From: an uncultured archaeon | GTDB taxonomy: Archaea; Asgardarchaeota; Lokiarchaeia; Sigyniarchaeales; SOKP01 | Assembly (NCBI GenBank): GCA_964486045.1 | Contig: CAZALK010000001.1 | Span: 1-64,000 of the forward strand | Length of the DNA: 64,000 nt | Direction of reading: 5' to 3' | Shown: piece by piece, positions 3,206 to 52,050 of the stretch | Position numbering within the stretch: position 1 is the first letter of the stretch | How the letters are laid out: each line of letters opens with the position of its first letter | Program-made: the position numbers and the translations under genes | Notes under the pieces: generated by a model | The model's input: only the letters and a program-made list of their open reading frames with translations | Databases searched by the model: none | Told to the model about the DNA's origin: nothing

Positions 3206-4009
3206 ATGAAGTTTATAGATTTATCCATCCCATTAATTAATCCAAATGAATTGATTTTTGATCCACCTCTATCTAGACCTAAAATTGAGTATAGTAATCA
3301 TTCTACCGGTGGGGAACAAATGGCTTTTGTTTTTCCGAAATTAAATCCCGAAGAACACTTACCAGATGGAAAAGGTTGGGCGGTTGAAACCATAACTATA
3401 TCCACTCATAATGGTACTCATATGGATGCGCCATGGCATTTTGCACCGATTCAAGATAGAGAAATAGGTGAGAAAAAAGCAAAGACAATTGATGAATTTC
3501 CGTTAGAATGGGGTATTGGACCACTTATTGTATTAGACACTACTGATTATGAAGATGGGTATGTAATGACTCCATATGATATTGACAAGAAATTAAAAGA
3601 TATTTCGCATAAATTGCAAGAAGGAGATATCCTTTGCATTAACACAAATGCTTCTAAATATTACGGGACTAAGGATTATATAAATTACGGCGTAGGAGTT
3701 GGAAAAGATGCCACATTACACATTATTAGGAAAGGTGTCCACGTTGTTGGAACGAATTCTTGGAGTTGGGATGCTCCATTTAGTATTACTGCTAATAAAT
3801 GGAAAGAATCTCTAAAAGCTAAAAAGCCGAAACCTTCTATTATTTGGGAGGGGCATTTTGCTGGCATTGAATTAGGATATTTTCAAATGGAAAAACTTGC
3901 AAATTTAGATAAAATACCTCCTGTTGGAGCAACAATCTATTGCTTTCCTATAAAGATTGCCAGAGCAAGCGCAGGATGGGTTCGGGCAGTTGCTACTATC
4001 CCAGAATAA
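3206..4009 (+). CDS. Cyclase/kynurenine formamidase-family metallohydrolase
   Basis: HNGTHMDAPWH motif, FIDLSIP N-terminus; ATG 3206 preferred over TTG 3188. Confidence 0.9.
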   Translation: MKFIDLSIPLINPNELIFDPPLSRPKIEYSNHSTGGEQMAFVFPKLNPEEHLPDGKGWAVETITISTHNGTHMDAPWHFAPIQDREIGEKKAKTIDEFPLEWGIGPLIVLDTTDYEDGYVMTPYDIDKKLKDISHKLQEGDILCINTNASKYYGTKDYINYGVGVGKDATLHIIRKGVHVVGTNSWSWDAPFSITANKWKESLKAKKPKPSIIWEGHFAGIELGYFQMEKLANLDKIPPVGATIYCFPIKIARASAGWVRAVATIPE

Positions 4010-50874: not shown

Positions 50875-51219
50875 TATACTTTTTATATTTTAGTTAAATT
50901 AAGTATGTTTTAATTAAACTAGTATTTTAATAAACATGGAAATGATTTAAATATTTTATATATTGTAATATTCGTATCGATATTATTAAAAAAGGTCTAA
51001 ATTTTTAATAAAACTGAAAATTTGATTTCTTTTTTTAGTGTTCTTCCTGTATTGGCATCATATTTTAACTATTCAAGCATAAATGTTTAAATTACAGGTA
51101 GTTTCAAATCATCCGAGATTTTAAATCTTCAACTGCTAATGAGATATTAGGAAAACAGTTTAACTAAAATAAAGTATTTTTTGCTCTTTGATTTTCCTAT
51201 TTCTATTGAAGAAAAGAGA

Positions 51220-51336
51220 GCCTCCTGCCAACGGACGCAATAATGCGTCAAAAATACTATAGGGGGAGGAGGGCGAAATCAGAGTGTAAAAATTTACACT
51301 ACCAAAAGACAAAAATCCAGGGTGTAGGCAGGAGGC
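51220..51336. ncRNA. Putative structured non-coding RNA (117 nt), strand unresolved
   Basis: 10-bp perfect terminal stem GCCTCCTGCC/GGCAGGAGGC, two internal hairpins, GC-rich in an AT-rich spacer, T-tract immediately 3' on +. Confidence 0.65.
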
Positions 51337-51591
51337 ATGTTTTTGTTTTTTTTGATGAATTTAATTCATTAATTGTTTTTACATTTTAAATATTAATGTA
51401 TTAAATTTTCATCTTAAGGATTATATATGATTAAAGGCTTATAAATTAATTTTAGAAAGAGTGTAATTAATTAATATAAATAATTATTATCACTACCTAA
51501 GTAGAGCTAATGGAAGAAATGTGATTTTAAATAAGCTCATTTTGGATATACATATCTGAAATCAAAAAAGTTTGAATAATTAATTTTTTCA

Positions 51592-52050
51592 GTGTTAAAG
51601 TTATATAATTATTTATTTCAATTATTTAAAAATAAAAAGCTTATGTACCCCATGGCAAGTAATAAAAAAGAGCAAACAGTAGGAAGACCAGAACCAGAAT
51701 TTAGCTTTGGAATAGGAACTGTCATTTGGAGTGCTATAGGATTTGTAATATCATGGGGAAATATGCTAATTATCCTTAACTCTATGCAAATTTGGTCGTA
51801 TTTGACAATAATATTTACTACGATAATCCCTGGTGTGATTATTGGATTAAAAGATAGATACTGGGGTTATGGCTATATGGGTGGTTTTGCGATCGCGGGT
51901 ATCCCATTCTCATTCTTAAATCCTCCATATGGTGACCTTTTCATTGGATGGTATACATTTGCCACTGCTCTCTTCATTTTTGTAATAATCCTACTAATTT
52001 TTTGGACCGGTTGGAGAGCAATTTCAGCAATCAAACGAGTAGATCAGTAA
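51592..52050 (+). CDS. Small 4-TM membrane protein
   Basis: Four hydrophobic segments; start probably ATG 51643 or 51652. Confidence 0.75.
   Translation: MLKLYNYLFQLFKNKKLMYPMASNKKEQTVGRPEPEFSFGIGTVIWSAIGFVISWGNMLIILNSMQIWSYLTIIFTTIIPGVIIGLKDRYWGYGYMGGFAIAGIPFSFLNPPYGDLFIGWYTFATALFIFVIILLIFWTGWRAISAIKRVDQ

Follow-up and report, generated by a model that had tools for sequence, protein, structure and literature searches.

What is a GC-rich, folded element doing in an AT-rich spacer of a Lokiarchaeial genome, and, if it encodes an RNA, from which strand is that RNA read and does it act in cis or in trans? The window analysed here, that is, the whole stretch under study, comprises 64,000 nt of contig CAZALK010000001.1 from an uncultured Lokiarchaeia archaeon (Sigyniarchaeales; SOKP01) whose genome is 99% complete. 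The element (51220-51336) has a G+C content of approximately 40% and lies in a 770-nt spacer of 14-26% G+C. An earlier note on this DNA had described it as an orphan structured element upstream of the tetraether lipid synthase gene tes, and had offered a novel small RNA, a cis-regulator of tes or a MITE-like unit as readings. We find that it belongs to an uncatalogued, strongly covarying and multicopy RNA family, the U-box RNAs, that is near-universal in one Lokiarchaeial family. More tentatively, and with a confidence that falls a little short of balanced, we read 51220-51336 as the structured core of a gene for a small non-coding RNA, family-specific and multicopy, which would be transcribed from the minus strand and act in trans bound to protein.

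Structure of the element

Read on the plus strand, the element is closed by a perfect 10-bp stem, P1, in which GCCTCCTGCC (51220-51229) pairs with GGCAGGAGGC (51327-51336). Enclosed within P1 are two hairpins, P2 (GACGCA-ataa-TGCGTC, 51234-51249) and P3 (AGTGTAA-aaat-TTACACT, 51283-51300), a purine tract (51261-51273) and an A-rich single strand (51301-51324); T-runs follow from 51340. The stem, the two hairpins and the purine tract had all been pointed out in the earlier note, and each was recovered at the same position. Their fold scores about -5 to -6 against shuffled sequence: the MFE is -41.9 kcal/mol on the plus strand (z = -5.1) and -42.0 kcal/mol on the minus strand (z = -5.9), and on neither strand did any of 200 dinucleotide shuffles do as well.

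In the minus-strand orientation the order of features is a promoter-like block, an A-rich spacer, the 5′ arm of P1, the U-box CCCUGGAUUUUUGUCUUUUGGU, P3, the tract CUGAUUUCGCCCUCCUCCCCCUAU (51282-51258), a U-rich linker, P2, the 3′ arm of P1 and a tail. The promoter-like block (51402-51450, minus strand; AATTTATAAG-CCTTTAATCATATATAATCC-TTAAGATGAAAATTTA) contains two TATA-like boxes at 51438-51445 and 51420-51428. Between it and P1 lies the A-rich spacer or leader (51337-51410, minus strand), which is T-rich on the plus strand and would be transcribed. Over approximately 60 nt to the right of P1 this region is composed of 0.50-0.58 T and 0.23-0.29 A as read on the plus strand (95 copies); the region measures 60-150 nt in different orthologues, and its sequence is poorly conserved. 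The 5′ arm of P1 (GCCUCCUGCC, 51327-51336, minus strand) leads into the U-box (UACACCCUGGAUUUUUGUCUUUUGGU, 51301-51326, minus strand), a near-invariant single strand containing the Sm-site-like AUUUUUG and a second U4 run. P3 (51283-51300, minus strand) consists of 7 bp and a variable 4-nt loop, and is succeeded by the conserved pyrimidine tract (CUGAUUUCGCCCUCCUCCCCCUAUA, 51258-51282, minus strand), which contains CCUCCU and is unpaired in the minus-strand MFE structure. P2 (GACGCA/UGCGUC, 51234-51249, minus strand) and the 3′ arm of P1 (GGCAGGAGGC, 51220-51229, minus strand) complete the fold. The 3′ tail (51208-51219, minus strand) is a pyrimidine run, here UCUCUUUUCUUC, with the family consensus (A/U)CC(C)UUU(U); it marks the left limit of conservation and is a putative termination site. 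As read on the plus strand, a conserved AAAGG(G)TG is found immediately left of P1 in nearly all members.

The RNA would thus adopt a three-way junction in which P1 encloses P3 and P2. Two conserved single strands would be displayed by this junction, namely the U-rich box CCCUGGAUUUUUGUCUUUUGGU and the pyrimidine tract, which often reads CCCUCCUCCCCCUAU.

Comparison with known RNA families

A search of the whole window against Rfam 15 at gathering thresholds returned no match. In a permissive scan of 51000-51600 (E ≤ 10) the best match scored 17.4 bits against a threshold of 55 bits, which is chance level, and the snoRNA matches in that scan fell outside the element, also with chance scores. 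ARAGORN identified no tRNA or tmRNA, and a literature search found no paper describing the U-box element. The Rfam and ARAGORN results bear out the earlier note's impression of a structured RNA outside the known families, one that did not look like tRNA, 5S rRNA or SRP RNA.

Membership of several classes was also assessed by their diagnostic features. For C/D box guide sRNAs, reading by eye found no RUGAUGA on either strand, and CUGA occurs once, after P3, without a partner for G·A pairing. The 3′ flank of P1 is (A/U)CC(C)UUU and not the ACA of an H/ACA guide sRNA. The TROVE/Ro60 domain (PF05731), sought with Y RNAs in mind, is absent from the element's own 99%-complete genome, whilst the control searches of Deinococcus and Bacteroides gave matches.

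Copy number and distribution

A BLAST search of the element's own genome returned 8 long matches and approximately 10 apparent fragments, the latter being full members of a third, more diverged subfamily. With a covariance model built from 30 members, 18 copies were found in this genome. Across the window's own family (f1), 98 of 101 genomes from 12 genera gave a match, with 1-18 copies each, although copy numbers from draft genomes are lower bounds because copies lie at draft contig ends. The same model found a match in 3 of 14 genomes of the sister family f2, one strong (1.2e-20) and two weak, and in none of the 5 genomes of families f3 and f4. Altogether this survey gave roughly 320 matches. 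Moreover, an invariant 29-mer was found on at least 120 metagenome contigs, which going by their record names come from marine and estuarine sediments. With 18 copies at home and hundreds in its relatives, the element is not the orphan that it had been taken for. The covariance model allows hundreds of unannotated loci to be annotated, and the family explains the recurrent GC-rich islands in the AT-rich spacers of these genomes.

Some copies are found close to one another. Those at G000:C22:64479-64618 and 66609-66748 are 2.13 kb apart within a direct repeat, which in addition includes a 329-aa ORF without a clear Pfam family, and G000:C14:149079-149507 and 3365-3794 each hold a pair of copies, approximately 290 nt apart within the pair. 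In draft genomes of relatives, several contigs start or end inside a copy (G012:C80:1-119, G012:C65:1-144, G014:C146:1-100, G007:C243:8-100 and G028:C140:1-61), and the family probably breaks short-read assemblies. Four contigs in IMG/VR contain the core motif, with copies that are weak or partial. One of them, a 224.8-kb contig classed as viral (IMGVR_UViG_3300029288_000001), holds a weak member lacking P2 (L269:30-147, 35.9 bits); the other three have the core motif only. These contigs may be host DNA or a mobile element carrying a copy.

Covariation and conservation

The element is under selection as a folded RNA. Copy number (18 in its own genome; 98 of 101 f1 genomes), synteny with tes (at least 8 genera) and covariation (all 23 modelled pairs) were the comparisons to which the earlier note had looked, and each gave a positive answer. 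Covariation was assessed on a model-fitted alignment of 105 members, with 500 shuffles and with controls in which pairing partners were slid by 1-3 columns. In every one of the 23 modelled pairs both partners have changed. Standard pairs occupy 92.9% of cells, compared with 69.3% in shuffles, and the covariation score is 0.618 against 0.208 in shuffles, with 0 of 500 shuffles reaching 0.618. Sliding the partners by 1-3 columns reduced pairing to 31-42%.

Each helix contributes to this signal. All 10 pairs of P1 change on both sides, with 93.4% of cells paired, and its forms include GACUCCUGCC, GGUCCCUACU, GCCCCGUGC and GAUUUCCCC, each with a matching partner. In P3 all 7 pairs covary (94.3% of cells paired); the variants of its stem include AGTGTAA/TTACACT, GTGTGT/ACACAC and TAGTGTAG/CTACACTA, and the loop varies too. 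All 5 pairs of P2 covary (97.5% of cells paired in the minus reading). P2 is variable in sequence and length, being longer or absent in some genera, and is absent in L214 and L221.

The single strands behave differently. In a set of 104 diverse members, enriched for divergent genera, 96 have the U-box AUUUUUGUCUUUUGG unchanged. The box is also invariant in a genus-level set derived by BLAST and not selected by the motif, and it is unpaired in the MFE structures of both strands. At the level of the locus, the tes-linked copy is approximately 90% identical within the genus, compared with 70-77% for the flanking coding sequences, and the spacer to its left is unalignable.

Two further pairings were considered. 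One, in which the pyrimidine tract would pair with the 3′ arm of P1 and so be masked as part of a conserved switch, can form in many copies but was rejected: it has no covariation, self-duplexes averaging -7.9 kcal/mol and cross-duplexes -7.8 kcal/mol, 54 of 102 being better. In the other, the A-rich leader would pair with the U-box, slightly better than in shuffles (mean z -0.9), a shift that homopolymer runs could explain.

Probable strand of transcription

Several features of the sequence suggest that the RNA is probably transcribed from the window's minus strand, and the C-rich minus-strand reading of the purine tract, which the earlier note had raised, is the likelier one. The first feature is the kind of wobble pair that the helices tolerate. 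When a transition strikes a Watson-Crick pair, the product is G·U if one strand is read and A·C if the other is, and mutation can take either route equally well. We aligned the same loci to plus-strand and minus-strand models for P1, and parsed P2 and P3 sequence by sequence. Over the same 100 loci the minus reading of P1 has 62 G·U cells and 68 non-pairs, whilst the plus reading has 26 G·U cells and 102 non-pairs; because the sequences are related to one another, these counts overstate the significance. When P1 of divergent genera is read on the plus strand, A·C outnumbers G·U by 44 to 15, and the internal wobbles of P2 are A·C on the plus strand (G·U on the minus) in 11 cases against 0. Pairs that are A·C on the plus strand are retained throughout whole paralogue sets, among them those of G125, of G090 and of subfamily C in the element's own genome. 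Among near relatives the wobbles in P1 are roughly balanced, at approximately 8 versus 12 events by our own tally. Given this balance and the shared ancestry of the sequences, the wobble counts are supportive and not decisive.

The second feature is the extent of homology. Orthologue alignments begin 7-12 nt left of P1 (51208-51213) and extend 115-150 nt to its right, and the paralogues of subfamily B have approximately 245 nt in common, made up of the element and approximately 100 nt to its right, with almost nothing to its left. A duplicated gene must carry its promoter; since homology continues only to the right, the promoter would be found only on that side. A minus-strand block with two TATA-like boxes (ATTTATAAAC...GATATATTAAA...TAAGATAAAAATTTA) is common to all 23 of the 23 syntenic orthologues, 60-150 nt from P1. 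Moreover, a purine-rich run followed by TTTAWAW, the order of a BRE and then a TATA box, is found in 33 of 95 right flanks facing the element, in 3 of 95 facing away from it and in 6 of 95 left flanks, counts that composition may inflate. The tRNA genes yielded no promoter consensus, as the 12 tRNAs found have no consistent box; this genome relies heavily on splicing of the tRNA type. Of 93 copies, 68 fold to a lower MFE on the minus strand, which is weak evidence because the U and G content of that strand allows more wobble pairs. Transcription of the minus strand would start at the BRE/TATA-like promoter 60-150 nt right of the stem (approximately 51420-51450 here), and the RNA would end in the short pyrimidine or U run just left of the stem (approximately 51210).

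The opposite reading is of an RNA from the plus strand that would open with a short AAAGGGUG leader, fold into the three-way junction and stop at a strong oligo-U terminator, serving as an SD decoy; its SD-like purine tract (GGGGGAGGAGGG) and the leader GGGUGA could pair with the 3′ end of 16S rRNA or with pyrimidine-rich RNAs. The downstream sequence speaks for it, since a run of at least four Ts lies within 30 nt after the stem in 91 of 95 copies on the plus strand, well above the 58% baseline at gene 3′ ends, compared with 66 of 95 on the minus strand, which is near that baseline; runs of at least six number 34 and 14, respectively. The plus-strand fold also has a strong z-score and A-rich unpaired junctions of the sort typical of folded RNAs, and AAAGG(G)UG is conserved across genera directly 5′ of P1. 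However, the helices have an excess of A·C over G·U when read on this strand, and homology among orthologues and paralogues ends 7-12 nt left of P1. No conserved promoter is found on the left, where the BRE/TATA-like pattern occurs in only 6 of 95 flanks, and the TATA-like AAAG/TTAAAA is too near P1 for a start site before the stem. We therefore regard transcription from the plus strand as unlikely. The T-tract that the earlier note had seen on the plus strand is present; rather than a terminator, it is more likely the A-rich leader or upstream region of a minus-strand RNA.

Relationship to tes and neighbouring genes

The copy linked to tes is syntenic in approximately 25 species of the genus, and the arrangement of the element, a spacer of 260-640 nt and then tes on the same side is found in at least 8 genera. 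The start codon of tes is apparently ATG 50866 (minus strand), whilst the ORF lister had placed it at TTG 50874. A TATA-like AAATATAAAAAG lies approximately 16-27 nt upstream of this ATG and no SD sequence is present; this suggests that the tes mRNA is leaderless. Approximately 170 nt upstream of tes form a conserved stretch of their own, with a TATA-like box approximately 26 nt ahead of the ATG, and conservation is absent from the spacer that links this stretch to the element. On its right the element is flanked by a poorly conserved gene for a 152-aa membrane protein (51592-52050, plus strand), which could be detected in a few loci, at 47-63% identity; the putative start codon, ATG 51644, is approximately 190 nt from the nearest TATA-like box.

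Elsewhere in the same genome the surroundings of the element differ, with 17 of the 18 copies at loci other than tes. A co-directional ORF lies downstream of 12 of the 18 copies and the other 6 face a convergent ORF, the next ORF being 44-1142 nt away. The genes downstream of copies include tes and genes for TPR proteins, a solute-binding protein and a Schlafen/AlbA_2 protein, and have no common function. Among the neighbours of the copies we found neither a common gene nor a transposase.

These data bear on whether the element could be a cis-acting leader on the minus strand, akin to a riboswitch or attenuator, that controls read-through into tes or another downstream gene. On the minus reading it does lie upstream of tes and co-oriented with it in at least 8 genera, the 12 of 18 copies with a co-directional ORF fit such a role, and the P1-closed junction, with its invariant unpaired bases and the short U-run after it, recalls an aptamer followed by a terminator. 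However, a leader would be hard to reconcile with distances of 44-1142 nt to the next ORF, with 6 of 18 copies facing a convergent ORF and with downstream genes that are functionally unrelated. Moreover, the separately conserved 170 nt before tes, with a TATA-like box of their own, suggest a separate leaderless tes transcript, and the spacer joining the element to them is not conserved. A cis-acting leader is thus quite improbable, and the regulation of tes in cis put forward in the earlier note is not upheld, since 17 of 18 copies are elsewhere and tes has its own TATA-like box.

The least credible reading, and a highly improbable one, would make the element a repeat, selfish or acting at the level of DNA (a MITE, a transposon end or a site of single-stranded-DNA recombination), and not a functional RNA. 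It would be suited by 18 copies per genome including tandem and paired ones, copies at draft contig ends, the motif on four IMG/VR contigs and a closing stem that forms an inverted repeat. However, P1 covaries at all 10 pairs and the stems stay paired while their sequence changes, the opposite of what conserved terminal repeats would do. The asymmetry in G·U pairs favours a single RNA strand, neither a transposase nor a consistent neighbour nor a duplicated target site flanking the copies was seen, and the copies on the IMG/VR contigs are weak or incomplete. The copy linked to tes is fixed in place in at least 8 genera and more conserved than the neighbouring genes. The MITE-like unit of the earlier note is discounted for the same covariation, synteny and want of a duplication.

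The U-box and its candidate partners

On these sequence comparisons the chance that the element acts in trans as a ribonucleoprotein (RNP) appears to us evenly balanced. A strand of approximately 20 nt that stays constant over 12 genera, amid helices that drift by compensatory change, is best understood as a binding site, and such constancy implies a partner that is itself essential and conserved. The U-box would accordingly be the docking site for that partner. No complement to the U-box was found in the element's own genome outside the family, and the absence of a complementary site makes a protein partner likelier than an RNA.

The leading candidate would be an LSm/SmAP ring. The eukaryotic Sm site is PuAU4-6GPu, and U-rich strands are bound by the Sm-like proteins of archaea. 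The corresponding minus-strand sequence here, GAUUUUUGU, separates P1 from P3 and is unchanged in 96 of 104 members; its last position is U and not a purine. The AUUUUUG core, the binding of U-rich strands by archaeal Sm-like proteins and the three LSM-domain genes in the genome, at C1:304685-304879, C21:4462-4674 and C10:115738-115932, together single out the Sm-like ring; as an actual identification of the partner, this prediction is possible but rather on the unlikely side.

The likeness to Sm-class snRNAs and to archaeal sRNAs bound by SmAP/LSm proteins lies in the single-stranded AUUUUUG between helices, which equals the core of an Sm site. Like the snRNAs, the element is small and folded, ends in a short U-run and exists as several paralogues, in a genome with LSM-domain genes. 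It differs from them in matching no Rfam snRNA model, in having U rather than a purine after the G, and in placing the box near the 5′ side of the fold and not the 3′ side. No spliceosome is known in these organisms. The full proposal, that U-box RNAs are the RNA subunits of an Sm/LSm-type RNP in Asgard archaea assembled via the AUUUUUG site, is a speculative one that we consider improbable. Were it true, the family would offer a prokaryotic model for the origin of Sm-class snRNPs before the spliceosome, and an Sm-like ring as partner would in itself make the family relevant to snRNP origin.

Other RNAs share features of the overall design. Y RNAs and stem-bulge RNAs are likewise approximately 100-120 nt long, with a long terminal stem formed by the 5′ and 3′ ends around a pyrimidine-rich interior, a 3′ U-run and several paralogues per genome. 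Y RNAs differ in that the element's own genome lacks Ro60/TROVE, that Rfam gave no Y_RNA match and that the bulged helix motif bound by Ro was not seen, and a Y RNA is not a supported reading. Riboswitch aptamers resemble the element in having several helices joined at a junction that P1 closes, stems that covary and unpaired nucleotides that do not vary; the element differs in its inconsistent downstream genes, its long and variable distances to them, its sometimes convergent neighbours and the lack of an Rfam family.

The pyrimidine tract

The tract of approximately half of the members could pair with G-rich or SD sequences. The 3′ end of the genome's own 16S rRNA is GGAUCACCUCCU, the terminal six bases of which, CCUCCU, are identical to the CCUCCU of the tract, and SD motifs in this genome peak at -16 to -10 before ORFs. 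However, the anti-SD-like pentamer is kept in only 55 of 104 diverse members, and no extended complementary targets of the tract were found in the element's own genome. The SD targeting that the earlier note had suggested is possible for members with the pentamer and is not general to the family; pairing of the tract with SD sequences is, as a prediction, doubtful. If the tract did target ribosome-binding sites, the RNA would regulate translation generally, a role of a type not so far demonstrated in archaea.

The closest parallels for such an activity are the bacterial C-rich sRNAs that occlude SD sequences (RsaE/RoxS and the loops of RNAIII), in which, as here, a folded small RNA displays an unpaired CCUCC, a potential partner for the G-rich ribosome-binding sites that many mRNAs carry. 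Unlike these, the U-box RNAs have no Rfam match and no extended targets, and the C-rich motif is present in approximately half of the members, their universal feature being the U-box.

Two members depart from the usual form of the tract. In the tes-linked orthologue L034:1509-1654 (G002:C12), an insertion of approximately 30 nt with its own hairpin, GGCA-TGGGAG-TGCC, lies in the middle of the tract, which therefore tolerates interruption. In L246 (G055:C1:3151859-3151996), a distant homologue from a 6.0-Mb single-contig genome of the sister family, P1, P2 and P3 are kept, the U-box is degenerate, and a CCCCG/CGGGG hairpin stands in place of the tract.
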